Shown here piece after piece: positions 3,755-55,872 of a stretch of DNA of 64,000 nucleotides; position 1 is the stretch's first letter, and each line of letters begins with the position of its first letter. Source of the stretch: an uncultured Acidobacteriia bacterium (GTDB taxonomy: Bacteria; Acidobacteriota; Terriglobia; Bryobacterales; Bryobacteraceae); the NCBI GenBank assembly GCA_903825445.1, contig CAIKAS010000364.1, positions 26,298-90,297 on the forward strand. The letters run 5' to 3'. The notes beneath the pieces are model-generated. The model saw only the letters and a list, made by a program, of their open reading frames with translations, made no database searches and had not been told where the DNA came from. A program made the position numbers and the translations under genes.

Positions 3755-3781
3755 GCGTTATTCTACAGCGTAGTCCGCAAA

Positions 3782-21897: not shown

Positions 21898-21937
21898 TTC
21901 GTTTTCTCCTCTTTTTGATCGATTTTTGGGCTGCGGT

Positions 21938-33066: not shown

Positions 33067-33077
33067 CGGAAAATAAT

Positions 33078-33797
33078 ATGGAAGACCGAAAGATAAAACC
33101 GAAGCCGTTTCGGAACAGTTTGTCGACACTCGCGCAACTCGCATTGCAGGAAGCGGGCGCTATTGGCTATGCAATTTTCAAAAGGCTTCCGAATTCAACT
33201 GACATTCTCCGCCAGGATGCGTCTGGTGTGGCTATAGACGAGGCAGCTGTCCGGCAAGGTGCTGCAGGAGTGCTTCTGTGGCCGCTGGGGGCCGATGGAA
33301 TTCTGGCGTTCGTTTTTTCGGACGAGAGTAATGCCAGGCGCGCCCAACCGCAACTGGACCGCATTGCCAAAGCCATCGATTCAGTGTGGTCTGCCGCCCA
33401 CGCTGCAGCCCGTTATTCTGACCTCGCCAATCAGGTTGCCGACCTCGAAGCGAGCCTGATGGATTCCAGAATCGCCGATCGCGCACGCGGCTTCATCGGA
33501 AATCGCGAACATGCCGACGCACTCGATGCCATCGCCCGACATGTGGAAACCGTTCTGCGCCCCGCCTCAACAGCTCAGGTGCTGGAACAACGGTCGCGGG
33601 ATCTGGAAGAAGAAGTCGAAGAACGCCGCCTAACCAAACGGGCGAAAACCATTCTTCAGAATGTCCATGGAATGTCCGAAGAACAAGCGCACGCTCATCT
33701 GCGCCAAATCAGCCGTAAGACAAGACGAAAACTGAAAGACGTCGCTGTTGATCTTATTGCAGGAAATAAAACAAATTCATTGACTCACGCAGATTAA
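33078..33797 (+). CDS. GAF-like + ANTAR domain RNA-binding regulator
   Basis: ORF 32817..33797. I moved the start to ATG 33078, 11 nt after the PIG-L stop. The C-terminus RLTKRAKTILQNVHGMSEEQAHAHLRQISRKTRRKLKDVAVDLI is an ANTAR domain. The N-terminal half is GAF-like. Confidence 0.75.
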   Translation: MEDRKIKPKPFRNSLSTLAQLALQEAGAIGYAIFKRLPNSTDILRQDASGVAIDEAAVRQGAAGVLLWPLGADGILAFVFSDESNARRAQPQLDRIAKAIDSVWSAAHAAARYSDLANQVADLEASLMDSRIADRARGFIGNREHADALDAIARHVETVLRPASTAQVLEQRSRDLEEEVEERRLTKRAKTILQNVHGMSEEQAHAHLRQISRKTRRKLKDVAVDLIAGNKTNSLTHAD

Positions 33798-33982: not shown

Positions 33983-36900
33983 ATGAAGTTTTTCATTACG
34001 GCAGTTCTATTCGCAAGCCTGGCTTTCGGACAAACATTCCAGGGAAGTCTGCGCGGCAGAATTCTCGACCAAAGCGGCAGTACCGAGCCATCCGCCAAAG
34101 TCACCATCACCGACGAAGCCACCCAGGTGAGCCGTTCCACTGTGACGAACGAGCAGGGAGAGTACGTGTTCAACTCCGTCATCCCTGCCACCTACTCGCT
34201 TGCCGTGGAAGCCCCTGGCTTCAAGAAATCCGAGCGAAAAGGGGTCGAGGTCGGCACCCATGAAGCTGTCGGTGTGGACGTCACCCTTCAACTCGGCCAG
34301 GTCACGGAATCCGTCAACGTGGTAGACGACGCTCCGCCACTCGAAACCGAGTCCGCTTCCACCGGTCAACAAATCACAACCCAGCAAATCGAAGATCTCC
34401 CCTCACTCGGGCGGAATTCGTTCTTCTTCGCCAAGCTCGCACAGTCGGTCGTCTTCGCCAACAATCCGGTGATGGGTCGCATGCAGGATCAAAACGCCAA
34501 CTCTCAGGTTTCGATCGCTGGCGGGCCCATCCGCACGAACAACGCGCTGGTCGATGGCATCTCCATCACCGATTCGAACAATCGCGCTGTATTCATTCCC
34601 TCGCCTGAAGCCGTGCAGGAAGTGAAACTGCAAGCCAACACCTACGATGCCGATGCGGGCCGCACCGGCGGCGGCACCTTCAACTCAACACTGAAATCCG
34701 GCACCAACGATCTGCATGGCAGCGCCGTAGGCCACATTCGCTTCACGGATCTGCTGGCCAACAATTATTTCTCCAACGCATCTGGCCAGGCAAGACCGAA
34801 CCAGCCCTTCAAAGACTGGGCCGCATCACTCGGCGGCCCTGTCGTCATCCCCAAAGTCTTCAACGGCCGTAACAAGCTCTTCTTCTTTGTTGCCACGGAG
34901 GCCTACCGCGAACTCGATCCCTCCAACACTTACAACCAGGTGCCCACTCTCGCCGAGCGCAACGGGGACTTCTCCCAGAGCCTTTATAGCAAGGGTGGCC
35001 AGCAGGTCATCTACGATCCGTTCAACACCAATGCCGCGGGAGCGCGCATCCCCTTCGCCGGAAACATCATTCCCTCCAGCCGTCTCAGTCCCATCGGTCT
35101 TGCACTCGCTTCCTACTACCCGAAGCCGAACACAGCCGTCCCGTACTATGGCTCGAACGACTATATCTACACAGGCGCATATCCGAACCGCGGCGATCAA
35201 TACACGAATAAGGCTGACGATCAGCTGACAAACTGGCTGCGCCTCTCCGGCTCCTACATTCACCAGAAGACCGGCGAAACTGACAACCCGTCTACGTTCG
35301 GCAACATCGCCTCACCCGGCCAGACGCTGCTCTTCCGCCGCATTGATGCCACTGCGGCCAATGCGACCGCAACCCTGAATCCCACCACCGTCCTCACGGT
35401 TCGCTGGGGCTTCAATCGCTTCTATTCCGCGACCTTCCCGACTGCCAGCGCGGGTTTCGATCTCACGACTCTGGGCTTCCCCTCGTCGCTTCAGGCGATC
35501 ACACCCGATACCGCTTTCCCCGCCATCACTACAAGCGACCTGACCAGCTACGGAGGCGGCTCCACAAACAGCGACATCTATTATTCCCGCACCTCCAGCG
35601 TGACTCTCGCCAAGTTCCTCGGCAAGCATAGTCTCAAAGCCGGCTTCGACTTCCGAACACTGCACGATTACGGCATCCCTGCCACCGGTCCCACGAGCCT
35701 GAGCTTCTCCCCAGTCTTCACACAGGCCAACGGAACCACCGCCACTCCCGGAACCGGCGCCAGCCTCGCCACCATGCTGCTGGGTTATCCCACTGGCGGC
35801 AGCATGACCGTAATCTCGCCCTTCGACGATTACCTTCGCTACTACGGCGGCTATGTTCAGGACGACTATCGCGTCACCTCGAAGCTCACCGTGAACTTCG
35901 GCCTTCGCCTCGAACACGAGTCCGGCATTCAGGAAGAGAACAACCACCTGATCAGTTCCTTCAGCCCCACCGCCGTGAATCCAGCCACAGCACTGGCAGG
36001 CATCGCCGTGAACGGAGCAGTTCAGTATGCGGGCGTCAATGGCAATCCAACACAAACCGGCAGTCCCTTGGCAGTCAAGTTCTCTCCGCGCGCTGGCTTT
36101 GCTTATTCGCTCGACAACAAGACGGTGGTCCGGGGCGGCTACGGCATCTACTGGGCGCCTTCGTTCTTCAGTTTTCAGAACACCGTCGGCTACTCACAGA
36201 CCACGTCCATCATCACCTCCACCAATGGCAACGTAACGCCCGCAGGGTCGCTCTCAAATCCCTACCCCAACGGGCTGCTCCAGCCGACGGGCAATACTCT
36301 CGGAGCCCTCTCCGGCATCGGTCAGGCCCTCACCGTATTCTCGCCAACTTCTGGTTCCGCCGGTTACGTGCAGGAATATTCCGTTGAACTGCAAAGACAA
36401 GCTCCCGCCGGAGTCGTACTCACCACGGGCTTCATCGGCTCTCATTCGCTGCATCTCAACGACAGCGGCCAGAATATCGATCAGCTCAACCCGTCGAACT
36501 TCTCACTCGGCAGCGCGGCATTGACGAAGGCCGTCACCAATCCGTTCTACGGAATTCCCAATGTGGGCGTCGGCTCTCTGGCCAACAAAACCGTCAGCGC
36601 GGAACAGCTGTTGCTGCCCTTCCCGCAATACACCTCGGTCGCGCTGAATAACAACGACGCGGGCCGCGCCATCTACTACTCCGTCTACATTCGCGGCCAG
36701 CGCAAGCTCGCCAAAGGCCTCACCCTGCTTGCCTCATACACCTGGTCACGCAATGAGACAGATGTCCTCGGCGTCAGCACCGCCGGCGCCTCCGGCATAA
36801 CGGGAATTTCCGGCGCGCAGAATGCCTACAACCTCGCCGCCGAGTGGAGCCTCGCAACGCAGGATGTACCCAACCGGTTTACATCGGCCATCACTTACCA

Positions 36901-37432
36901 GCTGCCGTTCGGACACGGCCAGCAATTCCTCGCCAATAGCCGCGCACTGGACGAAGTCGTCGGCGGCTGGCAGCTCAACGTCACCAGCATCATCCAGTCT
37001 GGCTTTCCGCTCGATGTCACACAAACCAACGCCAACAGCGTGATTGGCGCCAGCTACCAGCTCCCCAACGCCACCGGCATTGCGCCCGCCACCAGCGGTT
37101 CGACTGATTCCCGTCTTGGCGGCGCCAACGGCAGCACCGGCTGGCTCAATCCGGCGGCATTCTCGCAAGCTCCCGTACTGACGTTCGGCGATATCAGCCG
37201 CTTCCTCAACGTGCGCGGACCAGGGTTGTACAACTGGGACGCCTCGCTGTTCAAAACGTTCTCCGTCAAGGAAAAAGTGAAGGCCCAGTTCCGCGCCGAA
37301 GCGCTGAACTTGACCAACACTCCGCAGTTCGGCAATCCGAGTACTTCGATCAACAGCGCAACGTTTGGACAGATCACCACCGAAATCAATCACCCGAGAA
37401 TTGTGCAACTCGGCGTTCGAATCACTTTCTAA
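33983..37432 (+). CDS. TonB-dependent receptor with N-terminal carboxypeptidase-regulatory-like domain
   Basis: 1149-aa ORF with a signal peptide. The CarboxypepD_reg part is GSLRGRILDQSGSTEPSAKVTITDEATQVSRSTVTNEQGEYVFNSVIPATYSL. It also has a plug region and a long beta-barrel ending in the aromatic residue ...GVRITF. Confidence 0.85.
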   Translation: MKFFITAVLFASLAFGQTFQGSLRGRILDQSGSTEPSAKVTITDEATQVSRSTVTNEQGEYVFNSVIPATYSLAVEAPGFKKSERKGVEVGTHEAVGVDVTLQLGQVTESVNVVDDAPPLETESASTGQQITTQQIEDLPSLGRNSFFFAKLAQSVVFANNPVMGRMQDQNANSQVSIAGGPIRTNNALVDGISITDSNNRAVFIPSPEAVQEVKLQANTYDADAGRTGGGTFNSTLKSGTNDLHGSAVGHIRFTDLLANNYFSNASGQARPNQPFKDWAASLGGPVVIPKVFNGRNKLFFFVATEAYRELDPSNTYNQVPTLAERNGDFSQSLYSKGGQQVIYDPFNTNAAGARIPFAGNIIPSSRLSPIGLALASYYPKPNTAVPYYGSNDYIYTGAYPNRGDQYTNKADDQLTNWLRLSGSYIHQKTGETDNPSTFGNIASPGQTLLFRRIDATAANATATLNPTTVLTVRWGFNRFYSATFPTASAGFDLTTLGFPSSLQAITPDTAFPAITTSDLTSYGGGSTNSDIYYSRTSSVTLAKFLGKHSLKAGFDFRTLHDYGIPATGPTSLSFSPVFTQANGTTATPGTGASLATMLLGYPTGGSMTVISPFDDYLRYYGGYVQDDYRVTSKLTVNFGLRLEHESGIQEENNHLISSFSPTAVNPATALAGIAVNGAVQYAGVNGNPTQTGSPLAVKFSPRAGFAYSLDNKTVVRGGYGIYWAPSFFSFQNTVGYSQTTSIITSTNGNVTPAGSLSNPYPNGLLQPTGNTLGALSGIGQALTVFSPTSGSAGYVQEYSVELQRQAPAGVVLTTGFIGSHSLHLNDSGQNIDQLNPSNFSLGSAALTKAVTNPFYGIPNVGVGSLANKTVSAEQLLLPFPQYTSVALNNNDAGRAIYYSVYIRGQRKLAKGLTLLASYTWSRNETDVLGVSTAGASGITGISGAQNAYNLAAEWSLATQDVPNRFTSAITYQLPFGHGQQFLANSRALDEVVGGWQLNVTSIIQSGFPLDVTQTNANSVIGASYQLPNATGIAPATSGSTDSRLGGANGSTGWLNPAAFSQAPVLTFGDISRFLNVRGPGLYNWDASLFKTFSVKEKVKAQFRAEALNLTNTPQFGNPSTSINSATFGQITTEINHPRIVQLGVRITF

Positions 37433-37437
37433 GGACG

Positions 37438-38829
37438 GTGCAGACCGATATGAGAAATCACTCGTTGTTCTCGCTGAAAATCACGATCGCCGCCGGCATG
37501 GCCGCCCTGCTCTGGTCAGTCTTGCCCGCGCACGGCCAGATCGCCGTGCAGAAGCAGGGCTACATCCCGTTCACCGACGAGCCCATTAACTATCGCTCGA
37601 ACGACCTGAACGATCCCGTCGCCAAACTCGAGAAGCACCTCGAAAAAGGCGAGGTCGCCCTGCAGTACGAACCGAAGAACGGCTACCTGCGTTCCGTCCT
37701 GCAGTTGCTCGACATTCCCGTCAGTTCCCAAACGTTGGTCTTCTCAAAAACCAGCTTTCAATACAAGAAAATCACTCCTGAAACCCCGCGAGCTCTCTTC
37801 TTCAACGACGACGTTTACGTTGGCCAGGTGCACGACGGCAAAGCCCTGGAATTCGTATCCTTCGACCCGATGCAGGGCGCCATCTTCTACCTGCTGGACG
37901 AGCAGAAGTCCGAGCATCCGGTGCTTCAACGCGCCGAGCTCGATTGCACGCAATGCCACATCGCCGCCTCCACGCATAACGTCCCCGGCGTCTTCCTGCG
38001 CTCGGTCTTCACACAGCCCGGCGGGACGCTCGTAGCCAAAACCCCGCAGTACATCACCGGCCAGCAGAGTCCGCTCAGCGAGCGGTGGGGCGGCTGGTAC
38101 GTCACTGGCACTTCCGAGCCGCACATCGGAAATGTCACAGTGCCAGACACGGATCATGCCAACCAACTCGACAAGACGACCGGAAGCAACGTCACCGATC
38201 TGTCGAAGTTCTTCGATACGTCCGCCTATCTCTCCGTCCACAGCGACATCGTCGCGCACTTAGTGCTGGCCCACCAGACCCAGATGCACAACCTGATCAC
38301 GCAGACGAACTACCAGGCGCGCATCGCCGCATACAACGAAGCCGCGAAAAACAAACTTGCAGGCCTTCCAGAGAACTCTCCGCTCTCCGACGCGGCTCGC
38401 AGAAAATATGAAGCTCCCGCCGAAGAACTCGTTCGCTATCTGCTCTTCGCCAACGAGGCTCCTCTCAAGGCGCCTGTCAAAGGCGATTCCGGTTTCACCG
38501 AAGAATTCGCCGCACGTGGTATTCGCGATCCCCAGGGACGCTCCCTCCGCGACTTCGATTTACAGACCCGGATTTTCAGATATCCCTGCAGCTATCTGAT
38601 TTACTCCGAGGCTTTCGATTCTTTGCCCAGGCCCGCCAAAGACTACGTGTACCGCCGGTTACTGGACGTTCTCACCGGCGCCGACCAGAGTCCGGACTTT
38701 GCCCGCTTGACGGCAAAGGACCGGAAGGCTGTGCTCGAAATCCTCCTCGCCACGAAGCCTGCGATGCACGACGCATGGAAGGAATTCAACGCCCAGCAGG
38801 ATAAGCAATACAGAACCCAGAACAACTGA
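37438..38829 (+). CDS. secreted hypothetical protein with one CxxCH haem-c motif
   Basis: 463-aa ORF 5 nt after the receptor gene (alternative start ATG 37450). It has a signal peptide and a single CTQCH motif. I recognise no other family. Confidence 0.55.
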   Translation: MQTDMRNHSLFSLKITIAAGMAALLWSVLPAHGQIAVQKQGYIPFTDEPINYRSNDLNDPVAKLEKHLEKGEVALQYEPKNGYLRSVLQLLDIPVSSQTLVFSKTSFQYKKITPETPRALFFNDDVYVGQVHDGKALEFVSFDPMQGAIFYLLDEQKSEHPVLQRAELDCTQCHIAASTHNVPGVFLRSVFTQPGGTLVAKTPQYITGQQSPLSERWGGWYVTGTSEPHIGNVTVPDTDHANQLDKTTGSNVTDLSKFFDTSAYLSVHSDIVAHLVLAHQTQMHNLITQTNYQARIAAYNEAAKNKLAGLPENSPLSDAARRKYEAPAEELVRYLLFANEAPLKAPVKGDSGFTEEFAARGIRDPQGRSLRDFDLQTRIFRYPCSYLIYSEAFDSLPRPAKDYVYRRLLDVLTGADQSPDFARLTAKDRKAVLEILLATKPAMHDAWKEFNAQQDKQYRTQNN

Positions 38830-38866
38830 AGCAAAAACGCACCCGTTTGAAAGGAACCAAAACCGC

Positions 38867-40168
38867 ATGAACACCTTTACCAAAACCAGCGCCGCCCTCG
38901 CGGTCGGCATTCTGTCCACCTTCGCAACCGCTGCCAGCGCCCAGAGTCTCGAAGGCCGCTGGGACGCCAGCCTCGTCCAGCGCAATACCGTAATCCCCTT
39001 CCGGCTCGATATCTCCGGCTCGGGACCAACCCTCAAAGCCACCTTCTACGACGGCTGGAAGGCAAACGAAACCACCACGGCGGCAAAGTTTGAGAACGGC
39101 GTCTTGACGCTCGAACTCGGCCACTATCTCACCACCATTACCGCGAATTACAAAGACGGGCAACTTACCGGTTCACTCGGCTCCACCTCGCGCCAGGGTA
39201 GCGCCAGCTACGGTTTTCAGGCGAAGCCGTACGTCGCTCCCACCAACCTCGCGACAGACTATCCCAACATCGCCGGCACATGGGAGATCCCGCTCGAGAA
39301 GCCGACCGCCAAGGGTGAAAAGACTCAGCGCTTCGTCGTCCAGCAGGATGGCCCGAACATCGCCGCCACCACCTTACGCGTGGATGGTGACAGTGGCTCG
39401 CATGTCGGAACTTACAAAGACGGCAACTGGGTGATCAGCCATTTCGATGGCTCACGCCCCGGCTTGCTCGAAGTAAAACTGAACGCCGATGGAACGCTGG
39501 AAATTAGCCAGGGCGGCGGTCGACGCCCAGCCGCCGCAACTGACGAAGCCGCACCCGGCAAGTTGATCGCATATCGCCCCGAAGTAGCCCGCGCCAAAGG
39601 TTTCCCGGAGCCGGAGAACTATCTCACTCACACCACCGTCCGCGATCCCAATGAGAAGTTCGCGTTCAGCTTCCCCGATGCCAACGGCAAGCTGCGCTCA
39701 AACACCGATCCCGAATTCACCGGCAAAGTCGTCCTCGCCGTCGTGACCGGCACCTGGTGCCCCAACTGCCACGATGAAGCGCAGTATCTGGTCCAGCTCT
39801 ACAAGAAGTATCACGCACAAGGCCTGGAAATAGTAGCGTTGGATTTTGAAGAAGCCGAGCAGCAGGGTTCCCTCGAACGTGTCCACGCCTTCGTGAAACA
39901 GTACCAGGTGCCGTACCCGTATCTCATCGCGGGCGCGCCGGTGGAGATGTGGGAAAAAGTCCCACAGGCGGTGAATCTGAACACCTGGCCGGCGACAATC
40001 TTCGTCGGTCGCGACGGTCTCGTGAAAAGCGTTCATTCGGGCTTCGCGTCTCCCGCAGCCGGAGTGTTCAACGACCAGCTGAAGGCCGAGTTCACCTCGA
40101 CTGTCGAAAAACTGCTCTCGGACAAGCCGGTGAGCAGTTCGCCGGTGGCGTCGAAGGCCGGTTTCTAA
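38867..40168 (+). CDS. TlpA/ResA-like thiol-disulfide oxidoreductase with ~270-aa unknown N-terminal domain
   Basis: 433-aa ORF with a signal peptide. The thioredoxin fold carries the WCPNC active site (VVLAVVTGTWCPNCHDEAQYL) and GLEIVALDFEEAEQ. It is a full-length paralogue of 46179..47411. Confidence 0.8.
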   Translation: MNTFTKTSAALAVGILSTFATAASAQSLEGRWDASLVQRNTVIPFRLDISGSGPTLKATFYDGWKANETTTAAKFENGVLTLELGHYLTTITANYKDGQLTGSLGSTSRQGSASYGFQAKPYVAPTNLATDYPNIAGTWEIPLEKPTAKGEKTQRFVVQQDGPNIAATTLRVDGDSGSHVGTYKDGNWVISHFDGSRPGLLEVKLNADGTLEISQGGGRRPAAATDEAAPGKLIAYRPEVARAKGFPEPENYLTHTTVRDPNEKFAFSFPDANGKLRSNTDPEFTGKVVLAVVTGTWCPNCHDEAQYLVQLYKKYHAQGLEIVALDFEEAEQQGSLERVHAFVKQYQVPYPYLIAGAPVEMWEKVPQAVNLNTWPATIFVGRDGLVKSVHSGFASPAAGVFNDQLKAEFTSTVEKLLSDKPVSSSPVASKAGF

Positions 40169-40183
40169 ACAGATCGGAGGAGA

Positions 40184-40219
40184 TTCCCCGCCAGTCGTAT
40201 CAACACGGCTGGCGGGGAA
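40184..40219 (+). other. intercistronic 11-bp perfect hairpin
   Basis: TTCCCCGCCAG (40184..40194), a 14-nt loop, then CTGGCGGGGAA (40209..40219). No U-tract follows. It lies between the tlpA-like and dsbD-alpha-like genes. Confidence 0.5.
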
Positions 40220-40235
40220 CAAAACTGTAAACCCT

Positions 40236-40709
40236 ATGAAAATGACCGCAGGAAAATGCCCGCTCGTTCTCGTCGTCGCCGCACTTGCCTTTGCGCAAGG
40301 CAGCCCGATTGTTTTGACGTTCGCCCCACCTGCCAGCCTCACCGCGAAGCCTGGCTCAACCGCGAATACTACTCTCTCCGTCACCGTCGCCCCCGGCTAT
40401 CACGCCAACAGCAATAAGCCTGTGGACCCATACCTAATTCCGCTCCAGCTAAGTTGGAATCCGGGCCCGCTGACAGCAGCCGGTGTCATTTTCCCGAAGC
40501 CCGAAACACAGAAACTCGGATTCTCCGCGAAGCCAGTATCCGTATTCACCGGCAATTTCAATATTGAAACGAAATTCAAAGTAGCCAGCAACGCAACTCC
40601 GGGCACAACGACTGTGACCGGAAAGCTGCACTACCAGGCCTGCGACGACCGTTCCTGCCTTCCCCCAAGAACGATTGAAGTGACGCTGCCCGTAACGATT
40701 GCGAAGTAG
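40236..40709 (+). CDS. DsbD N-terminal (alpha) domain-like protein (DsbC-corrector family)
   Basis: 157-aa ORF with a signal peptide. GKLHYQACDDRSCLPPRTIEV carries the Cys pair and CLPP context typical of the DsbD-alpha/ScsB N-terminal domain. Confidence 0.65.
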   Translation: MKMTAGKCPLVLVVAALAFAQGSPIVLTFAPPASLTAKPGSTANTTLSVTVAPGYHANSNKPVDPYLIPLQLSWNPGPLTAAGVIFPKPETQKLGFSAKPVSVFTGNFNIETKFKVASNATPGTTTVTGKLHYQACDDRSCLPPRTIEVTLPVTIAK

Positions 40710-40723
40710 AGGAGATCTCTGAA

Positions 40724-41686
40724 ATGAAGATTCTTGAGCTTAATAGAAACGCTTACAAAACGCTGCTGGCCGCCGCCGCATCCGGCCTCATCCTTACCCT
40801 CGCCGCAGTGCAAGTCTGCGCGCAATCGTTGGGCGGATCGCCTGCAACAGGTTCGCCTTCCCCCAACGCTGCGCCTGGAGCCGTCGCTGCCAGCGGCGCC
40901 CGTTCCGGCAGAGGCGGTCGTGGCGGCCCCATCCCCACCGGCCCCACTCCGCGCACCGCCGATGGACATCCCGATCTCACAGGCTCCTGGAGAGACGATG
41001 GCAACGCGAAGCCGCACGGTAACCTGGGCAAGGATCTGCCCGGCTTCAAGCTTCCCTTTACCCCGGCCGGCGTCGCGGCCCACGAGTATAACGTCAATCG
41101 CACCATCGATCCCGAAAGCCTCTGCCTTCCCGGCGGACTTCCCAGAGAAGACATCGGCGACGGCGGTTTCCAGCTGCTACAATCCGGCCCCGACGCGGTC
41201 TTCCTCTACATGTATGGAACCTTCCGCGACGTTCCCATCGATGGCCGCAAACATACGGAAGATCCGGACCCAACATTCTTCGGTGAAGACGTCGGCAGCT
41301 GGGATGGCGATACGCTCGTCATCGACTCCATCGCGTTCAAAGACCAAAAGACGTGGGCCGACGAAAACGCCGATCCCCACAGCGATCAGCTTCACACCAT
41401 CGAACGCTGGACCCGTTCCGATGCCGGTCACCTGCACCTCGACCTCATCGTCGACGATCCGAAGTTCTACTCACAGCCCATTCACTACCAGCGCAACTGG
41501 ATAGCTTCGGTCGGCCAGCACACCAGAGAACAGGCCTGCTCAGAGAACAATTTCGATGTGGCTGGCGGACACCTCGGCTTCGGCCCCGGTCCCATCCGCG
41601 CCGACGGAACTCGTGGCTACGACAATCCCGCGCCGTTGCCACCGCCTCCTTCAAAGACGAATCCGCCGAAGACAACCTTGCAGTAA
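40724..41686 (+). CDS. secreted hypothetical protein
   Basis: 320-aa ORF 14 nt after the previous gene. It has a signal peptide, a Gly/Pro/Ala-rich linker, then a globular region (ADGHPDLTGSWRDD...WDGDTLVIDSIAF...LHTIERWTR). I recognise no family. Confidence 0.55.
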   Translation: MKILELNRNAYKTLLAAAASGLILTLAAVQVCAQSLGGSPATGSPSPNAAPGAVAASGARSGRGGRGGPIPTGPTPRTADGHPDLTGSWRDDGNAKPHGNLGKDLPGFKLPFTPAGVAAHEYNVNRTIDPESLCLPGGLPREDIGDGGFQLLQSGPDAVFLYMYGTFRDVPIDGRKHTEDPDPTFFGEDVGSWDGDTLVIDSIAFKDQKTWADENADPHSDQLHTIERWTRSDAGHLHLDLIVDDPKFYSQPIHYQRNWIASVGQHTREQACSENNFDVAGGHLGFGPGPIRADGTRGYDNPAPLPPPPSKTNPPKTTLQ

Positions 41687-41711
41687 CCACGCTAACTAAG
41701 GAGCAAAGAAC

Positions 41712-42128
41712 ATGAGACACATTCTGGGATTACTTACCGTCATGGCCATCGGGCTGGCCACATTTGTCGCACCCGTCAGCGCCCACCATTCGTTTGCCGC
41801 CGAGTTTGATGGCAGCAAGGCCATCCGCCTCGTTGGGAAACTGACGAAGGTCGACTGGTCGAACCCCCACACCTACTTCTTTCTGGATATCCAGGACGAT
41901 AAAGGCAAGGTCACGAATTGGGCCTGTGAAGGCGGCGGCCCGGGCGCGCTGTCTCGACGCGGCCTCAACAAGGGTGATCTAAAACTCGGCGACACCATCG
42001 TCGTTGACGGTTATCGCGCCAAAGATGGATCCAACCTGATCGACGCGCGGCGCGTCACGCTGCCGGACGGTCGCAGCATTTACGGTGGCACCCCGGGTGA
42101 CGGTGGCCCAGGCGACAACGGCCAGTAG
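41712..42128 (+). CDS. small periplasmic protein, DUF6152-like; predicted mature N-terminus HHSF
   Basis: 138-aa ORF with RBS AAGGAG upstream. The signal peptide ends ...APVSA followed by HHSFAAEFD. The motif KVDWSNPHTYFFLD is present. The DUF6152 assignment is from memory. Confidence 0.55.
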   Translation: MRHILGLLTVMAIGLATFVAPVSAHHSFAAEFDGSKAIRLVGKLTKVDWSNPHTYFFLDIQDDKGKVTNWACEGGGPGALSRRGLNKGDLKLGDTIVVDGYRAKDGSNLIDARRVTLPDGRSIYGGTPGDGGPGDNGQ

Positions 42129-42626
42129 ATGTCCGCTTCCCTGCTGCAATTCTGTCAATGGCTGAACGATACCGGCCCTGCCACCGCGCTGCGTGAATCG
42201 AAGTATATGTTTCCGATCGTCGAATCGGTTCACACGCTCGCCATCACGCTGGTGGTGGGGACCGTGGCCATATTGGATCTTCGCCTTCTTGGTCTGATCC
42301 TCAAAAAAGAACCCGTGTCCAAAGTGGCCAACCAGATTTTACCGGTCACATGGAAAGGCTTCGTTGTGATGGCAATCAGCGGCCTGGCGCTTTTCGCGGC
42401 GGAAGCTGCGAAGTCGTATCACAATCCCGCGTTTCGGTTCAAATTAATCCTGCTCGCGCTGGTCGGTCTCAATCCTCTGATCTTTCATTTCACGATTTAC
42501 AAAACGGTCGACCAGTGGGGCGGAGCACCCCGCGCTCCCGGTCGCGCTCGCCTCGCTGCCGTTCTGTCCCTAAGTCTCTGGAGTGCGATTGTCATCGCCG
42601 GCCGCGCTATCGCCTATTTCAACTAA
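42129..42626 (+). CDS. polytopic membrane protein, paralogue 1 of 4 (DUF6644-like)
   Basis: 165-aa ORF starting directly after the previous stop. Shared motifs are ESVHTLA, DLRLLG, YHNPAFRFK, AAVLSLSLW and GRAIAYF. Confidence 0.6.
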   Translation: MSASLLQFCQWLNDTGPATALRESKYMFPIVESVHTLAITLVVGTVAILDLRLLGLILKKEPVSKVANQILPVTWKGFVVMAISGLALFAAEAAKSYHNPAFRFKLILLALVGLNPLIFHFTIYKTVDQWGGAPRAPGRARLAAVLSLSLWSAIVIAGRAIAYFN

Positions 42627-42633
42627 AACTGAT

Positions 42634-43110
42634 ATGTCCATTCTCTCTCTGTTTCAGTGGTATGACCACACGGGCCTCGCCGACTGGATGCATCGCTCCG
42701 CATGGGGATTCGCCGTAGTCGAAATGTTCCACCTGATCGCGCTCGCATTGTTCGGCGGCGCGGTTCTGATGCTGAACCTCCGGCTGCTTGGCATCTTCCT
42801 TCCTGGACGGCCCGCCGGTCAAATCGCGCGCGATCTTGCCCCGTTGATCTTCGGCACGCTCGTCGTCCTGGCGATCACAGGCGTCCTGATGATTTCGGAA
42901 GAAGCGATGAAGTGTTATCACAACACCGCATTCCGCTGGAAGATGCTGCTATTTCTACCTGCGTTGCTTCTCAGCGTGGGAATGCATCGCAGGCTCGCAA
43001 CTTCGCCGGGGTCATTCGCCTCTGAGAGTACCGCCAGATTCGCCGCGGTGCTCTCTCTGACGCTTTGGTTCAGCGTGGGCGTGGCAGGCAGAGCAGTCGG
43101 CTATCTCTAA
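42634..43110 (+). CDS. polytopic membrane protein, paralogue 2 of 4 (DUF6644-like)
   Basis: ORF 42583..43110, start moved to ATG 42634 by alignment with the paralogues. Motifs: EMFHLIA, NLRLLG, YHNTAFRWK, AAVLSLTLW, GRAVGYL. Confidence 0.6.
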   Translation: MSILSLFQWYDHTGLADWMHRSAWGFAVVEMFHLIALALFGGAVLMLNLRLLGIFLPGRPAGQIARDLAPLIFGTLVVLAITGVLMISEEAMKCYHNTAFRWKMLLFLPALLLSVGMHRRLATSPGSFASESTARFAAVLSLTLWFSVGVAGRAVGYL

Positions 43111-43130
43111 ACGCTAACCCACAAGCAACC

Positions 43131-43574
43131 ATGCTCATCTACGATCTCGCCGCCAATCCGCTCAACAGTAACGAGTGGTCCTTCCCTCTCACGGAATGCT
43201 TCCACGTCGCGTCCATGGCGCTTTGCATCGGCACCATTGCGGTCGTCGACCTGCGACTCCTCGGTGCAGGCATCACGAACCGAACCGCAGGGCAACTCGT
43301 TCGCCTCACCGACCCCTGGAGCATCGCCGGATTCAGCATCGTCATCACCTCCGGCCTGCTGATCTTCTCGTCCGATCCGCTCAAGTATCTCCACAGCGCA
43401 CCGTTCCAGCTCAAGATGGGACTTCTCCTGCTCGGCATTCTCTACAACTACACGCTCCATCGCAAAGCCGCGCGGTCCGATCCGCCGCCTGGCATTCGAT
43501 TCCTCGCCGCCGCCTTCTCCCTCGCACTGTGGACGACGCTCGTGTTCTCGTCAATTTTTGTGGCCTTTTGGTAA
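43131..43574 (+). CDS. polytopic membrane protein, paralogue 3 of 4 (DUF6644-like)
   Basis: ORF 43065..43574, start moved to ATG 43131. Motifs: ECFHVAS, DLRLLG, YLHSAPFQLK, AAAFSLALW. Confidence 0.6.
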   Translation: MLIYDLAANPLNSNEWSFPLTECFHVASMALCIGTIAVVDLRLLGAGITNRTAGQLVRLTDPWSIAGFSIVITSGLLIFSSDPLKYLHSAPFQLKMGLLLLGILYNYTLHRKAARSDPPPGIRFLAAAFSLALWTTLVFSSIFVAFW

Positions 43575-43589
43575 AGGAATCCAACAATC

Positions 43590-44141
43590 ATGTCTATCGC
43601 GCAGATTTTCCATTGGACGCAGAACACCGCCTGGGCCACAGCTCTCCGCGAGTCGGACGTGGTCTACCCCGTCGTTCTCTCGCTTCATCTGTCCGCCATC
43701 GCGCTTTTCGGCGGCACCATCCTGCTCACCAATCTGCGTTTGCTCGGCCTCGCGCTTCGTCAAATTCCTGTCGCTGAGGTCGTCAAACAACTCCGTCCGT
43801 ATAAGTGGGCTGGCTTGGTCCTGATCCTCACGTGCGGCGTGCTGCTGGCCTCCGCCAAGGCGGACACCTATTACCCCAATCCGTATTTCCGAATCAAAAT
43901 CCTGCTGATCTCACTCGTGGGTGTCCACGCACTCATCTTCCGGCGAGGCGTTTACAACAAGGATGCGGGCGTCGCGCCTCCCAAAGCCAAACTTGCCGCC
44001 TGCCTGTCTCTGGCTCTGTGGCTGGGCATCCTGTCGATGGGCCGCTGGATCGCCTATTATGAAAAACCGAAGTCTGTACGGGCGTCTCCGAGCGCCTCAA
44101 ATTCTTCCACTGCGCTGATCGCGGCGGAGATTGCCCGATAA
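43590..44141 (+). CDS. polytopic membrane protein, paralogue 4 of 4 (DUF6644-like) with C-terminal tail
   Basis: 183-aa ORF. Motifs: LSLHLSA, NLRLLG, YYPNPYFRIK, AACLSLALW, GRWIAYY. It carries an extra ~25-aa Ser/Ala-rich tail. Confidence 0.6.
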   Translation: MSIAQIFHWTQNTAWATALRESDVVYPVVLSLHLSAIALFGGTILLTNLRLLGLALRQIPVAEVVKQLRPYKWAGLVLILTCGVLLASAKADTYYPNPYFRIKILLISLVGVHALIFRRGVYNKDAGVAPPKAKLAACLSLALWLGILSMGRWIAYYEKPKSVRASPSASNSSTALIAAEIAR

Positions 44142-46178: not shown

Positions 46179-47411
46179 TTACTTCCTCGCAGTCTGTGAA
46201 TTCTCCGCCAGCAGTTTCTCCACTCGCTCCACGAATTCCTTCTTCTCCTTCTCGTAGAGAACTCCGCTCCCTGAACTTGGGAAGCCCGCATGCACGCCCT
46301 TCACCAGCCCGTCGCGACCCACAAAGAACGTCGTCGGCCACGCATTCCAGTTCTGCGCCTGCGTCAGTTTTTCCTTCGCGCTGCCCGTTTCGCCGGCTAA
46401 CAGCACCGTGTACTTAATGCCGTTCTGCTTGATAAACGCCCGCAGGCGCGTCGGGTTCGCCACCTGCTCCGCCTCTTCAAACGACAGCGCGATAATCTCC
46501 AGTCCCTTGCTGTGGTACTTGTTGTAAACCTCTGCCAGGAACGGCGCTTCGTCATGGCAATTCGGGCACCAGCTGCCCGTGATGTTAATCAGCACCACCT
46601 TGCCCTGAAATCGGGCATCGGTGTTCGATACGGTCTTCCCGTCCAGATCCGGAAAACTGAATGGAAACGGCTGCGTCGCGTCCTTCACCGTCGTGAAGGA
46701 ATTAGCGTCAGTCGGCTCCGCCAGGCCCTTCGCCTTGACCTCTTCCGGCCGGATCGCGACGACCGTTCCGCCCCCGCGCCCGCTCCCCTGATCTACCGAC
46801 AACGTACCGTTTTCCTGCGGCGTGATCGTCCAAATTGCCGGACGTGACCCATCGAAGTGGCTGACCACAAACTTGCCGTCCTGCCAGCCGCCCGTCAGTG
46901 CGCCAGTGTCGCCATCTACCCGAAGAATCGACGCCGTGACGTCGTTGCCTTTCTGTGTCACCACCAGATTCCACGCCTTCTCGCCCTTGCTGCTCTTAAC
47001 GTCTTCAATCACCCACACACCCGCCACATTCGGTGCCGGCGTCTTCGGAGCCGCCTGCGGGCGGTTGGGGACCGCGTGGATCGGTGAGGGCGCACCCGAC
47101 CTTCCACCCCGCGAAGTCGACCAATCGCCGTCCAGGGAGCCGTCTTTAAGGGTCAGCTTCAGAACCCCCAGATAACTATCGAAATTCAGAACCAGCGAGC
47201 CATTCTCATATGTGCCGCCGCTGGATATCAGCTTGCCGTCCCCGTTAAAGAACCAACCCTTTACGTCGGAGCCCGATCCCGAAAAGCCAATCTTGAACGG
47301 AATCTCCGTTGTGCCTTGCTTTAAAGTCGCGTCCCAGAGTCCGTCAATGGTCTGTGCCTGCATTCCGGCTACAACAGACAAGAACAGGATGCTAATTCGT
47401 CTGATCTTCAT
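46179..47411 (-). CDS. TlpA/ResA-like thiol-disulfide oxidoreductase, second paralogue
   Basis: 410-aa ORF with a signal peptide. It has the WCPNC active site (VVLINITGSWCPNCHDEAPFL) and GLEIIALSFEEAEQ. It is collinear over its full length with 38867..40168, including the unknown N-terminal domain (GxWDAxLxQ..TxIPF, LRVDGDxG, SHFDGSRP). Confidence 0.8.
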   Translation of the reverse strand: MKIRRISILFLSVVAGMQAQTIDGLWDATLKQGTTEIPFKIGFSGSGSDVKGWFFNGDGKLISSGGTYENGSLVLNFDSYLGVLKLTLKDGSLDGDWSTSRGGRSGAPSPIHAVPNRPQAAPKTPAPNVAGVWVIEDVKSSKGEKAWNLVVTQKGNDVTASILRVDGDTGALTGGWQDGKFVVSHFDGSRPAIWTITPQENGTLSVDQGSGRGGGTVVAIRPEEVKAKGLAEPTDANSFTTVKDATQPFPFSFPDLDGKTVSNTDARFQGKVVLINITGSWCPNCHDEAPFLAEVYNKYHSKGLEIIALSFEEAEQVANPTRLRAFIKQNGIKYTVLLAGETGSAKEKLTQAQNWNAWPTTFFVGRDGLVKGVHAGFPSSGSGVLYEKEKKEFVERVEKLLAENSQTARK

Positions 47412-47769: not shown

Positions 47770-48693
47770 ATGGCCATCGAACCAGAACGGCAAACGGCAC
47801 TCGGCGACGTAGCGGCCCGCCAACTTGCCAACGCGACCAAGACCGCTCCCCAAATGTCGCGCATCACCCCGAGGTGGCTCACGCACTTGCTGCAGTGGAC
47901 CCCGGTGGAAGCGGGTATTTACCGGCTAAACCGGGTGAAAGATGAGGCTAAGGTCACCGTCGATTGCTCCGACCGCGACGAACGCGACCTGCCTCAGACC
48001 TACGTTGACTATGAAGAGAATGCACGCGAGTACATGTTGAGCGCCGTCAACACGGTGGTAGACGTTCACACCCGGGTTTCGGATCTCTACAGCGTCCCGT
48101 ACAACCAGATCACCGAGCAATTGCGCCTCACCATCGAGATTGTCAAGGAACGCCAGGAAAGCGAACTGATCAACAATCACGAGTACGGTTTGCTGCATAG
48201 CGTTGCTCCGAAACAGAGGATCAAGACGCATTCAGGTGTTCCAACACCCGACGATCTGGACGATCTGATCGCAAAAGTCTGGAAAGAGCCCGGCTTCTTC
48301 CTCGCCCATCCGCTGGCCATCGCCGCATTCGGGCGTGAATGCACCCGCCGTGGCGTACCACCGCCTACAGTTTCTCTCTTCGGCTCGCAGTTCCTCACAT
48401 GGCGCGGCATCCCGCTGATTCCTTCTGACAAGATCGGCGTCGAGAAACATAAGACAAGCATCCTCCTGGTCCGTACCGGCGAGCGCAGACAGGGCGTCGT
48501 CGGACTCTACCAACCCAATCTTCCGGGTCAGCAAAGCCCCGGTCTCTCGGTCCGTTTCATGGGCATCAACCGCAAGGCGATCGCGTCGTACCTGGTCTCC
48601 CTCTATTGCTCGCTCGCGGTTCTGACCGAAGACGCTCTCGGCGTCCTCGAAGGCGTGGAAACGGATAAATATCATGAGTACAAACGCGTTTGA
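47770..48693 (+). CDS. family 2A encapsulin nanocompartment shell protein
   Basis: 307-aa ORF with GGAG 11 nt upstream. The motifs are collinear with SrpI/Rv1762c-type shell proteins as I remember them: ARQLANATKT, ITPRWLTHLLQWTPVEAGIYRLNRV, LPQTYVDYEE, HTRVSDLYS, QLRLTIEIVKERQESELIN, PTPDDLDDLIAKVWKEPGFFLAHPLAIAAFGRECTRRGVPPP, TWRGIPLIPSDK, GLSVRFMGIN. There is no cNMP-binding insertion. Confidence 0.85.
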   Translation: MAIEPERQTALGDVAARQLANATKTAPQMSRITPRWLTHLLQWTPVEAGIYRLNRVKDEAKVTVDCSDRDERDLPQTYVDYEENAREYMLSAVNTVVDVHTRVSDLYSVPYNQITEQLRLTIEIVKERQESELINNHEYGLLHSVAPKQRIKTHSGVPTPDDLDDLIAKVWKEPGFFLAHPLAIAAFGRECTRRGVPPPTVSLFGSQFLTWRGIPLIPSDKIGVEKHKTSILLVRTGERRQGVVGLYQPNLPGQQSPGLSVRFMGINRKAIASYLVSLYCSLAVLTEDALGVLEGVETDKYHEYKRV

Positions 48694-50317
48694 TCCCGGC
48701 CTTCCGGATGAACTGCCTGAAGGTTGGCCCGAAATAGAAACACTCGCACGCCTCGCAAATGAGTTCTTCTCTGCGAAGCCCGGAGAAACTGTGCCGGATG
48801 CTCACACGCCCGCGTCGCCGGAACCCGCGAATTTCGATTTGAACGGCGACGTTCCACTCGGCCGCTCAGCGCCGTCGCCTGTCGCGCTTCCCGGCGCGTC
48901 AGAATTGCAGGCGCTCATCGACGCGATTCCGTTCTCTCCCTTCGCGCCACCAGCGGCGGCGCCAGGTACCCCGGCGTCAACTGGCCCCAGTTTCTACTTT
49001 ATGGAGCAAGCTGGTCCAGGCCCGGTGACTCCGCCGCCCGGAGCCGCCACGCCACAAGCCTCTTTGCACGGCTTCAGCGGACCCTTCGACGTAGCCTCAA
49101 TCCGGCGCGACTTTCCCATCCTCGAAGAGCGCGTCAACGGCCGTCAGCTCGTTTGGCTCGATAACGCGGCCACCACCCAGAAACCGCGTCTCGTCATCGA
49201 TCGCCTGAAGTATTTCTACGAGCACGAAAACTCCAACATTCATCGAGCCGCGCATGAACTGGCGGCACGGGCTACCGACGCCTACGAATCGGCGCGCGAC
49301 AAAGTACGCGGCTTCCTGAACGCCGGTTCTTCGAAAGAAATCGTCTTCGTCCGCGGCGCCACCGAAGCCATTAACCTGGTCGCCCAAAGCTGGGGGCGTC
49401 AGCACGTCGGTAAAGATGACGAGATTATTGTCTCCACGCTGGAACATCACGCCAACATCGTGCCCTGGCAGCAATTGGCAACGGAGAAGGGCGCTAAACT
49501 GCGCGTCATCCCGGTCGACGATAGCGGCCAGCTCCTTCTGGACGAGTACGGCAAGCTTCTTAACTCAAAAACGAAGCTCGTAGCCTTCACCCAGGTTTCG
49601 AACGCCCTCGGCACCATCACGCCAGCGAAGCAGATCATCGAAGCGGCGCATTCCGCCGGCGCGAAGGTTCTCCTCGATGGCGCGCAATCCGTATCCCATA
49701 TGGCCGTCAACGTTCAGGATCTGAATCCGGATTGGTTCGTCTTCTCCGGCCACAAGGTCTTTGGGCCTACCGGCATCGGCGTGCTCTACGGCAAGGAAGC
49801 GCTGCTCAGCGAAACGCAGCCGTGGCAGGGCGGCGGCAACATGATTCAGGACGTCACCTTCGAGCGCACCATCTATCAACCGGCGCCAAATAAGTTCGAA
49901 GCCGGCACCGGCAATATCGCGGATGCCGTCGGCCTTGGTGCCGCCATCGACTACGTTCAGTCCATCGGGCTGGACCGTATTTCGGAATACGAGCACCAGC
50001 TCCTGCTCTACGCCACCCGCTTCCTGCAGGAGATTCCCGGCCTGCGGCTGATCGGCACGGCGAAAGAGAAAGCGGGCGTCCTTTCCTTCGTTGTGGATGG
50101 CTACCGAACCGAGGATATCGGTTCTGCCCTCAATCGCGAAGGCATCGCCGTCCGCTCCGGACACCACTGCGCCCAGCCCATTCTGCGGCGCTTCGGAGTG
50201 GAAAGCAGCGTCCGCCCGTCGCTGGCGCTCTACAACACCTGCGCCGATATCGACGCCCTGATCTCAGCTCTGCTGCGAATCACAAGTCAACGAGCTTTTG
50301 CCACTCAGCGTACCTAA
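48674..50317 (+). CDS. cysteine desulfurase (SufS/CsdA-like, class V aminotransferase) with N-terminal encapsulin cargo-loading domain
   Basis: 547-aa ORF overlapping the shell gene by 20 nt. The catalytic core begins near IRRDFPILEERVNGRQLVWLDNAATTQKP. It has the PLP lysine in FSGHKVFGPTGIGVLYG and the active-site Cys in RSGHHCAQP. Aa 1-140 are Pro/Ala-rich and contain LARLANEFFS. Confidence 0.9.
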   Translation: MSTNAFDPGLPDELPEGWPEIETLARLANEFFSAKPGETVPDAHTPASPEPANFDLNGDVPLGRSAPSPVALPGASELQALIDAIPFSPFAPPAAAPGTPASTGPSFYFMEQAGPGPVTPPPGAATPQASLHGFSGPFDVASIRRDFPILEERVNGRQLVWLDNAATTQKPRLVIDRLKYFYEHENSNIHRAAHELAARATDAYESARDKVRGFLNAGSSKEIVFVRGATEAINLVAQSWGRQHVGKDDEIIVSTLEHHANIVPWQQLATEKGAKLRVIPVDDSGQLLLDEYGKLLNSKTKLVAFTQVSNALGTITPAKQIIEAAHSAGAKVLLDGAQSVSHMAVNVQDLNPDWFVFSGHKVFGPTGIGVLYGKEALLSETQPWQGGGNMIQDVTFERTIYQPAPNKFEAGTGNIADAVGLGAAIDYVQSIGLDRISEYEHQLLLYATRFLQEIPGLRLIGTAKEKAGVLSFVVDGYRTEDIGSALNREGIAVRSGHHCAQPILRRFGVESSVRPSLALYNTCADIDALISALLRITSQRAFATQRT

Positions 50318-52405: not shown

Positions 52406-53073
52406 CGTATCTACACGTCAATCTCGTCCTGGAATAAGTGCAATTTCTGACTGCTTTACCCCTCATTCAATGAGATTTATCGGACAATATATCGTCATTG
52501 AACAGAAAATGAAGTTACTTTGATTTTACCGCAGGTCGGACTCCTCGTGGCTACCACAGTCGCTGGTTACGAGTCTATCTGGTCCTCTTTCGAACAGTTG
52601 CAGGCCCGCCGTTGCCCATGGCCAGTCACAGGGACCCGTAATACTCGTATCCGGCACATAAGAAATCACTTCCCATCGTTCCCCCTTCTCTGCAAGGCTG
52701 ATTTCCCGCCTCTCTGCCATATAGTCAGATTGGACTATGCTTTCACAAGTCAATCTCGCGAACTTTTGCCAACAGGACTTAGTGCGCGTGCCGCCGACCC
52801 GCGTTACAGAAACGCCGGGACAACTAAAAAAACAAGATGTTCCAGCAAATCCGGCCTATCTATCAGAAAACAATAGCAACCCGCCGCACGGGAAACCCAT
52901 TTATAAGCCATTCTCAAGCCATTTCCGGTGTGTTTTAGCCCATTTTCCGGCCGGGAAAAGCCAACTCAACCCATCCAGGGACACCAAGACCCATTCCCGG
53001 ATAGACTCGCGGAAGACTTTGGTCCGGCCCCTGACATTTCAGCGGAAGCCTGCCTTCTGCCGCTGTCTTATGT

Positions 53074-53102
53074 TTGACATTCGTGTCCAGTCTCGCTATT
53101 GT
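53074..53102 (+). promoter_or_regulatory. sigma70-type promoter candidate for the ACIII-like operon (TTGACA-17-TATTGT)
   Basis: TTGACA at 53074..53079, a 17-bp spacer, then TATTGT at 53097..53102. It lies ~130 nt upstream of the actA ATG at 53232. Confidence 0.45.
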
Positions 53103-53231
53103 CATGAGTTGCCCTCTGTCCCGGGTTTTGGTCCGAAACGGGGTTCAGCGTGGGCTTCGCCGTACTCAATTTTCGTGTCCGATCCAGGTTTGTACAGCCG
53201 CTTCTCCGGTCCCCATTTGCGGCCTGCCGCC

Positions 53232-53717: not shown

Positions 53718-53731
53718 GCCCTAAACCTAAT

Positions 53732-55867: not shown

Positions 55868-55872
55868 ACGCT

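Follow-up and report, generated by a model that had tools for sequence, protein, structure and literature searches.

What do four consecutive, related genes for small membrane proteins contribute to the operon that they close? The genes, here called M1 to M4, lie at 42129–44141 on the plus strand of a 64,000-nucleotide (nt) stretch of DNA, referred to as the window, from an uncultured Acidobacteriia bacterium of the Bryobacteraceae (assembly GCA_903825445.1, contig CAIKAS010000364.1, positions 26,298 to 90,297 of the forward strand). A preliminary description had assigned them to DUF6644 (Pfam PF20349) as a family without known function. Both points hold: Pfam recovers the family, and no paper in the literature searched mentions DUF6644, nor DUF6152, the family of the secreted protein encoded next to M1. 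We read the locus, with about an even chance of being right, as a split CopC/CopD-like copper-handling module, in which two pairs of half-size CopD relatives, each made of one A-type and one B-type chain, act together with a periplasmic partner.

Four diverged DUF6644 proteins in unlike pairs

M1 occupies 42129–42626 (165 residues), M2 42634–43110 (158 residues), M3 43131–43574 (147 residues) and M4 43590–44141 (183 residues), with M2 and M3 counted from ATG codons. The mechanically derived open reading frames of the latter two begin at GTG 42583 and TTG 43065; from the ATG starts at 42634 and 43131, the resulting amino termini align with those of the other copies and of orthologues. The four proteins align end to end with pairwise identities of 28–46%, so that the full-length paralogy stated in the preliminary description is borne out. 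Against PF20349, M1 scores 47.4 bits (E 2.9e-12), M2 58.1 bits (E 1.5e-15), M4 62.2 bits (E 8.1e-17) and M3, the most diverged copy, 24.9 bits (E 2.5e-5), slightly under the 27-bit cut-off of the family. M3 nevertheless groups with orthologues of the M3-type, which are listed under PF20349 and are 147–164 residues long at other loci. As all four match DUF6644, their similarity goes far beyond chance. NCBIfam gave no match for M1–M4, nor for DUF6152 and two further proteins of the operon, U320 and U463.

The sequences contain the motifs listed in the preliminary description, with one exception: the terminal GRxxxY is found in M1, M2 and M4, but M3 has SSIFVAF instead. The helix-1 motif (V/T)E(S/M/C)xH takes the form VLSLH in M4. 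G-x5-(D/N)LRLLG and AAxxSLxLW occur in all four copies, and the mid-protein motif reads YHNPAFRFK, YHNTAFRWK, YLHSAPFQLK and YYPNPYFRIK in the successive copies. Hydropathy profiles and an AlphaFold model of M4 (predicted local distance difference test, pLDDT, 91.4) agree on two short amino-terminal helices followed by four long hydrophobic helices, in line with the four-helix proteins expected earlier. Solved relatives were sought in two ways. PDB sequences searched with a profile of the DUF6644 alignment yielded no match, and Foldseek found no PDB entry with E < 1 for the confident M4 model; consequently no fold of the cytochrome b561, MsrQ or DsbB type can be claimed. A redox-active Cys in the membrane proteins was considered and rejected: the M4-type has a Cys (TCG) where the other types have Ser or Thr.

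A neighbour-joining tree of 73 DUF6644 domains contains four orthologous clades, corresponding to M1, M2, M3 and M4, within two superclades. Superclade A comprises M1, M4, the single genes and the cytochrome-fused members, and superclade B comprises M2 and M3. A-type proteins are marked by a four-residue insertion in helix 3, which carries Asn in the M1-type (Asn115 in M1, whose numbering is used for all conserved positions) and His in the M4-type, and which is absent from all B-types. M1 has both Glu32 and His35; M4 and the other M4-type proteins have Leu at the Glu32 position, and M3-type proteins usually have Ile at the Arg159 position. Given the identities between the copies and the four old clades, a recent tandem amplification was rejected, as the preliminary description had anticipated.

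Every sampled gene pair consists of one A-type and one B-type gene, in the order A–B for M1 and its partner M2 and B–A for M3 and its partner M4. Natural fusions also exist that unite an A and a B domain in a single chain (P0121, P0122, P0126 and P0123, the last with an added cytochrome c' domain). Because the pairs are always A+B and the fusions join A to B, the sequences provide strong, though indirect, evidence for A+B heterodimers, of which the window would encode two rather than one tetramer.

The copy number was followed in 29 related genome loci (labelled L001 and so on), where genes in high-GC loci were found by six-frame searches; greedy gene calling there missed many genes. A single gene was found in nine of these loci (Rokubacteria, Burkholderiales and others), a pair in 17 and four genes in only three, either in line (L001 and L007) or split (L015). 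Four-copy arrays, whose conservation the preliminary description had proposed to check by phylogeny, thus recur in few loci only. M1M2-type and M3M4-type pairs mostly stand apart elsewhere, the former beside DUF6152 and the latter beside oxidase cassettes.

Conservation within the family was determined for 109 diverse DUF6644 representatives. His35 and Gly85 are invariant (109/109 each); Trp151 is kept in 108, Lys105 in 107, Ser147 in 106, Phe102 in 105, Arg52 in 98 and Glu32 in 87 of the relatives. His35, Gly85, Lys105, Ser147 and Trp151 are kept in all four window copies. The His of 'YHN' (His98) occurs in only 14 of the 109 and is therefore no family feature. Each DUF6644 chain has one conserved His, not several, and no Met or Cys is conserved. 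The earlier suggestion of functional His and Glu residues within the membrane is accordingly supported for His35 and Glu32 and has to be dropped for the His of YHN.

Lys and Arg residues are unevenly distributed, with mean numbers of 3.7 in loop 1, 2.7 in loop 3, 1.4 at the amino terminus and 1.3 in loop 2. By the positive-inside rule, this distribution favours an N-out/C-out arrangement, with both termini and loop 2 on the periplasmic side. Carboxy-terminal cytochrome c'-like domains with a CxxCH motif are fused to the A-type members P0123, P0266 and P0269; such domains are necessarily periplasmic and agree with this topology. Taken together with the helix limits of the M4 model, it would place Glu32, His35, Gly85 and Lys105 in the outer half of the membrane.

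A His-His partner and the resemblance to CopD

Most of the functional information on the module is carried by the partner of the membrane proteins, which, like the operon at large, had escaped the preliminary description. The DUF6152 gene (41712–42128, plus strand; Pfam E 3.7e-28) encodes a secreted protein with an oligonucleotide/oligosaccharide-binding (OB) fold, and its stop codon abuts the start codon of M1. DUF6152 genes adjoin M1M2-type pairs and eight of the nine single DUF6644 genes, in most loci directly upstream. The two-gene cassette DUF6152–DUF6644 stands alone in varied contexts, which identifies it as the minimal unit. In 29 diverse DUF6152 homologues, the signal peptide always ends in Ala and is followed by His-His; an Asp about eight residues past His-His and the His of a 'PH' motif are conserved as well. 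In the close subfamily these sites are His25, His26, Asp33 and His53. An AlphaFold2 model of moderate confidence (pLDDT 76) shows a beta-barrel, and a fold search returned generic OB folds (LysRS N-domain, SSB, PriB, CcmE; E about 1e-3), which assigns the fold of DUF6152 but not its function.

A comparable set of residues is known from CopC, which binds Cu2+ via the amino-terminal amine, two His and one Asp (PMC8689200). The sequence of DUF6152 suggests that it offers the CopC ligand set on a different fold, and the protein may be a periplasmic metal carrier, presumably for copper, and a functional analogue of CopC. Like YobA, the CopC homologue of Escherichia coli, in which His27 is the first residue after signal-peptide cleavage, and like YcnI (DUF1775), it is small and secreted, is predicted to begin with His in its mature form and has potential ligands in the amino terminus, His and Asp. 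YcnI is a periplasmic Cu2+ carrier with an amino-terminal His site. A further likeness to CopC and YobA is the position of the gene directly upstream of that for a CopD-like membrane protein. The differences are the OB barrel, the lack of sequence similarity, the two adjacent amino-terminal His and the fact that the metal site of DUF6152 is a predicted one.

The relation of the membrane proteins to CopD emerged from Pfam scans of the 109 members. Recurrent sub-threshold hits were obtained to DUF2214 (49 members, best E 1e-7), CopD (nine, best E 5e-6), UPF0093/HemJ (seven, best E 1.1e-3), SirB (five), DUF2269 (three) and DUF4149 (a few), which we take to form one Pfam clan around CopD. The searches proposed in the preliminary description therefore had a mixed outcome: DUF6644 was matched, CopD and DUF4149 appeared below threshold in few of the relatives, and cytochrome b561 did not recur. 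The nearest Pfam family is DUF2214 (PF09980), which M3 matches at E 3.3e-5, nearly as well as DUF6644. All these DUF2214 hits remain under the cut-off of 34.1 bits, and DUF2214, mentioned in passing by only two papers in the literature searched, is itself uncharacterised. For the MsrQ/YedZ-like type that had also been suggested, and for di-haem cytochrome b561-like proteins, no support was found: these families are absent from the recurrent hits of the 109 members, they have two pairs of His ligands on two helices of one chain where DUF6644 has a single conserved His per chain, and the PDB gave no structural match.

The CopD-like relationship fared better, being supported by the weak hits to the CopD model and by the register with YebZ of E. 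coli. The model covers residues 185–284 of YebZ and residues 62–154 (helices 2–4) of a DUF6644 protein from L031. In the latter, the match is preceded at a distance of 30 residues by the invariant helix-1 His; in YebZ, the distance from His154 to the match is 31 residues. Two independent alignments (hhalign, hmmsearch), which are not significant and were used for the residue register only, not as evidence of homology, place His35 on His154, Glu32 on His151 and Lys105 on a Lys of YebZ. YebZ imports copper specifically; the exchange H154A abolishes uptake, H135A lowers it, and YobA enhances it (Palmer et al., 2025; PMC11923076). The same study reports that among proteobacteria about one CopD in three is a truncated form with four helices, that cytochrome c plus Sco1/thioredoxin-like domains are attached to some CopDs, and that copD genes have copC, TonB-dependent transporters and copper chaperones as neighbours (PMC11923076).

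DUF6644 proteins resemble CopD and YebZ in several respects: they are helical membrane proteins, a conserved His close to the periplasmic side of one helix corresponds in position to His154, a later helix begins with a Lys, and the gene lies beside that of a secreted protein whose mature form starts with His. Their proximity to TonB-type outer-membrane proteins, multicopper oxidases, cytochrome c domains and thioredoxin-like proteins is another likeness. In contrast to CopD, which has eight helices and both His in one chain, DUF6644 has four helices per chain, a counterpart of His154 recognized by alignment and spacing, and chains that come in unlike A+B pairs; copper transport by these pairs is putative. 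E-x-x-H replaces H-x-x-H of YebZ, and the neighbouring gene encodes the OB-fold protein DUF6152 instead of an adjacent or fused CopC with its beta-sandwich. Judged from its sequence, DUF6644 thus appears to behave like a diverged half-size CopD, yet it is not a member of the CopD family, because the scores stay below the cut-off, the chains have four helices, His135 has no counterpart and a CopC partner is missing.

Copper enzymes were encountered in the vicinity of M4-type genes, for which seven look-ups on long contigs were made. The M3M4-type pairs are usually without an adjacent DUF6152 gene. In three of the seven cases, the pair is arranged tail-to-tail with a three-gene cassette for a small membrane protein (about 100–114 residues), a multicopper oxidase and a second membrane protein of about 240 (236–246) residues. 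The remaining cases differ from each other: the multicopper-oxidase cassette comes immediately after a further DUF6644 gene at a distance of 7 kb; two DUF6644 pairs flank, on one strand, a COX2–COX1–COX3–CtaG operon for a caa3 oxidase; the protein of about 240 residues alone is kept; or a pyrroloquinoline quinone (PQQ) dehydrogenase and a cytochrome c are found. The cassette extends over 10468–13006 in L035, 9531–12066 in L039, 8494–11039 in L044 and 323–2821 in L037. Its protein of about 240 residues has faint CtaA/COX15-like matches, and a homologue also follows CtaG in the caa3 operon (L041). Faint cytochrome b561-like matches are also seen for neighbours beside the multicopper oxidase.

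In the proposed copper-handling module, the two chains of each pair (M1+M2, M3+M4) would together restore the eight-helix layout of CopD. A pocket in the outer half of the membrane would be lined by Glu32 and His35 (helix 1), Gly85 (helix 2), Lys105 (beginning of helix 3), and Ser147 and Trp151 (helix 4). The metal, most likely copper, would pass the outer membrane via the barrel protein of the operon, be bound in the periplasm at the amino-terminal His-His/Asp/His site of DUF6152 and be handed over to the helix-1 His of a membrane pair, which would carry it on, into the inner membrane or through it, to supply copper enzymes. The right redox state of the thiols of partner proteins, or of the metal, would be maintained by the operon's thioredoxin-like, DsbD_N-like and CxxCH proteins. 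We regard this composition, with an outer-membrane barrel, an OB-fold His-His carrier, two split A+B pairs and thiol-redox and CxxCH accessories, as a proposition with evenly balanced prospects. The homology of the four copies with their family assignment, the conservation pattern, the A/B pairs with the natural fusions and the gene neighbourhoods are direct results of the analysis, whereas we only infer which metal is handled (most likely copper), in which direction it moves, that the chains pair physically and that DUF6152 hands the metal over.

Copper, haem or another cargo

A number of results weigh against a copper-handling function. None of M1–M4 hits the CopD model (PF05425) at E ≤ 0.1, and the best relative, the DUF6644 protein of L031, reaches 27 bits (E 5.9e-6), under the 32.1-bit cut-off. 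Direct comparison of DUF6644 with YebZ is not significant (hhalign probability 0.14, negative hmmsearch scores). Among the 109 relatives no conserved counterpart of YebZ His135 was found, and a chain with a single conserved His, and with neither Met nor Cys conserved, offers few ligands for the passage of copper. By fold, DUF6152 is not a CopC but an OB barrel in which ligand-type residues are conserved, and its putative metal binding is read from sequence only. No copper enzyme is encoded beside the operon in the window. The oxidase loci are mostly from related Acidobacteria and so are not fully independent samples, although their flanking genes do differ, and these neighbourhoods also fit a role in electron transfer.

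Electron transfer is the core of the main alternative, which we consider unlikely, namely that the pairs are small b-type cytochromes. One haem b would be held at the A/B interface by the helix-1 His of each chain, as proposed for HemJ, and electrons would travel between the quinone pool or the cytoplasm and periplasmic partners (cytochrome c', CxxCH proteins, TlpA/DsbD_N, multicopper or haem-copper oxidases). One invariant His per four-helix chain and obligate pairing suit this arrangement, as do the invariant Gly on the adjacent helix and the nearly invariant Lys on the periplasmic side of helix 3; in cytochromes b such residues are expected for porphyrin packing and propionate binding. HemJ has a conserved His in its first helix, the haem ligand. 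DUF6644 shares with it the small helical membrane type and, through the weak hits to UPF0093/HemJ in seven of the 109 relatives, the Pfam neighbourhood, and HemJ (PgdH2), a protoporphyrinogen IX dehydrogenase, is a membrane b-type haem protein that forms a stable dimer (PMC13564367). The faint CtaA-like and cytochrome b561-like neighbours beside the multicopper oxidase point in the same direction. The cytochrome c'-like fusions do so too, but they do not discriminate between copper and haem because CopDs carry such domains as well. M1–M4 themselves have no hit to the HemJ model (PF03653), and within the family the HemJ signal is rarer and much weaker than those to CopD and DUF2214. No haem-biosynthesis genes lie near DUF6644, and its heterodimer-type pairs, linked to a secreted His-His protein, contrast with the HemJ homodimer. 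Moreover, the YebZ His that aligns with His35 acts in copper uptake, a Glu one turn above the His (E-x-x-H, compared with H-x-x-H in YebZ) resembles a metal-ion ligand pair, the tightly linked DUF6152 with its amino-terminal His-His would be left without a role, and no solved cytochrome b fold was matched. Haem b in DUF6644 is possible only by analogy with HemJ. What tips the balance towards copper is DUF6152 as a partner, together with the register of E-x-x-H on H-x-x-H and the mutants of YebZ.

A transport function for a different cargo, either another transition metal (Zn, Ni, Fe, Mn) or haem, with DUF6152 as binding protein and the DUF6644 pairs as permease, appears more doubtful still. 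It would accommodate the His/His/Asp/His site with a free amino terminus, which is not specific for copper, the presence of the haem chaperone CcmE among the OB-fold matches of DUF6152, the TonB-dependent-receptor-like barrel that opens the operon as in many metal or haem uptake loci, and the single DUF6152–DUF6644 cassettes in varied contexts without copper genes nearby. On the other side, the sole characterised relatives point to copper, copper enzymes recur in the neighbourhoods, and no siderophore, haem-utilisation, Zn or Ni genes are among the genes annotated in the operon. Copper and haem could also be combined: the A+B pairs would hold haem b between the two helix-1 His and act as a transmembrane cupric reductase, in which Cu2+ bound at the His-His site of DUF6152 is reduced by electrons of membrane or cytoplasmic origin, and Cu+ is released into the same protein for import or for insertion into oxidases. 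We consider this clearly improbable; if it were true, HemJ-like haem binding and CopD-like copper handling would be one mechanism across the CopD-like superfamily. Finally, the hetero-oligomer of the preliminary description stands in so far as unlike copies are expected to pair, whereas one obligate hetero-tetramer of all four chains is very improbable. Four adjacent, co-directional genes with gaps of 7–20 nt and the same four-gene order in L001 and L007 would agree with a tetramer, but most loci have one gene or one pair, pairs of the M1M2-type and of the M3M4-type are as a rule found separately and in unlike surroundings, and the natural fusions have two domains, not four.

The operon, its surroundings and the reach of the two families

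M1–M4 close an operon of ten genes on the plus strand (33983–44141) with intergenic gaps of 0–67 nt; a convergent greA/greB-like gene follows 3' of M4. The closest related locus, L001 from a Bryobacterales genome, agrees with it in all ten genes and in their order. The first gene (33983–37432) encodes an outer-membrane beta-barrel with a CarboxypepD_reg domain (OMP_b-brl_4, E 4.6e-201; CarboxypepD_reg, E 3.3e-18). Barrels of this TonB-dependent-receptor-like type are common in Acidobacteria, and homologues occur near DUF6644/DUF6152 genes in about ten related loci. It is followed by the gene for U463 (37438–38829), a secreted protein of 463 residues with a single CxxCH motif (CTQCH), possibly a c-type haem protein and an accessory part of the module. 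U463 has no match in Pfam, NCBIfam or the PDB, and among the related loci an orthologue was seen only in L001.

Two thiol-redox genes, likewise regarded as accessory, come next. A TlpA/ResA-like periplasmic thiol-disulfide oxidoreductase (38867–40168; Pfam AhpC-TSA and Redoxin) has a WCPNCH motif and a long amino-terminal domain; its NCBIfam matches to ResA, DsbE and TlpA are all sub-threshold, and L001 and L003 have the gene too. On the minus strand at 46179–47411, 2 kb downstream of the operon, lies the gene for another TlpA-like thioredoxin, which shares the long amino-terminal domain (361 bits to the first). The DsbD_N-like periplasmic protein (40236–40709; Pfam DsbD_N, E 5.8e-11) keeps a Cys pair (CDDRSC), and an orthologue was found only in L001.

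U320 (40724–41686), encoded between the DsbD_N-like protein and DUF6152, is secreted and belongs to a family without annotation, in which Cys134, His177, His219 and His283 are invariant. Its 2249 homologues are all called 'hypothetical', and their genes are co-located with DUF6152 and DUF6644 in many loci; in some (L022, L026 and L028), several genes of each of U320 and DUF6152 form a row in which the two alternate. U320 has no match in Pfam or the PDB, and PDB sequence searches with DUF6152, U320 and U463 returned noise only. Rfam and simple promoter and terminator scans of the operon gave nothing useful; in its 186-nt leader no RNA family or clear terminator was found. Just upstream lie the genes for a zf-HC2 anti-sigma-type protein (30165–31310, plus strand) and an ANTAR-domain protein (32817–33797, plus strand), which may regulate the operon.

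Other parts of the window hold further gene groups. At 47770–50317 (plus strand), the gene for a family 2A encapsulin shell protein (SrpI-like, E 2.8e-107) overlaps the start of a gene for a class-V aminotransferase/cysteine desulfurase of 547 residues with a long amino-terminal extension, the usual shell-plus-cargo arrangement. Genes for a multihaem cytochrome c and for molybdopterin-oxidoreductase-like, 4Fe-4S and NrfD-like proteins (52737–57890, plus strand) resemble those of Alternative Complex III, a quinol:cytochrome c oxidoreductase. A PSD/PSCyt and DUF1552 (HXXSHH) pair at 3704–7085 (plus strand) and a DUF1800 and DUF1501 pair at 20521–25381 (minus strand) are typical of Planctomycete and Acidobacteria genomes, and an 898-residue protein with TPR and CHAT (caspase-like protease) domains is encoded at 26368–29064 (minus strand). 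GC skew is negative from position 1 to about 56 kb and positive thereafter, with a cumulative minimum at about 55–57 kb, which may reflect a strand-bias switch or a change in gene orientation.

Both DUF6644 and DUF6152 are large families, characteristic of soil Acidobacteria, Rokubacteria and Burkholderiales; among culturable bacteria, Paludibaculum, Terriglobus and Granulicella carry DUF6152/U320. When 1.84 billion representative proteins (clusters at 50% identity) were searched with a profile, this retrieved 6854 DUF6644 clusters at E ≤ 0.001 and 3525 at E ≤ 1e-10. For DUF6152, at least 4954 proteins were found at E ≤ 0.001 among 4983 candidates scored; since nearly all candidates passed, the family is probably larger. 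The assignment of DUF6644 to the neighbourhood of CopD, the rule of A/B pairs, the fusions, the His-His site of DUF6152 and the oxidase neighbourhoods are new results of this computational analysis. If the interpretation as a copper-handling module is right, two DUFs and the unannotated U320 family would gain a testable function. The locus would then illustrate how an eight-helix transporter can be divided into halves, and would hint at a supply line for multicopper and haem-copper oxidases in these organisms. Many soil bacteria would acquire or distribute copper by a CopC/CopD-like route that is built from different parts, namely split A+B halves and an OB-fold His-His carrier.

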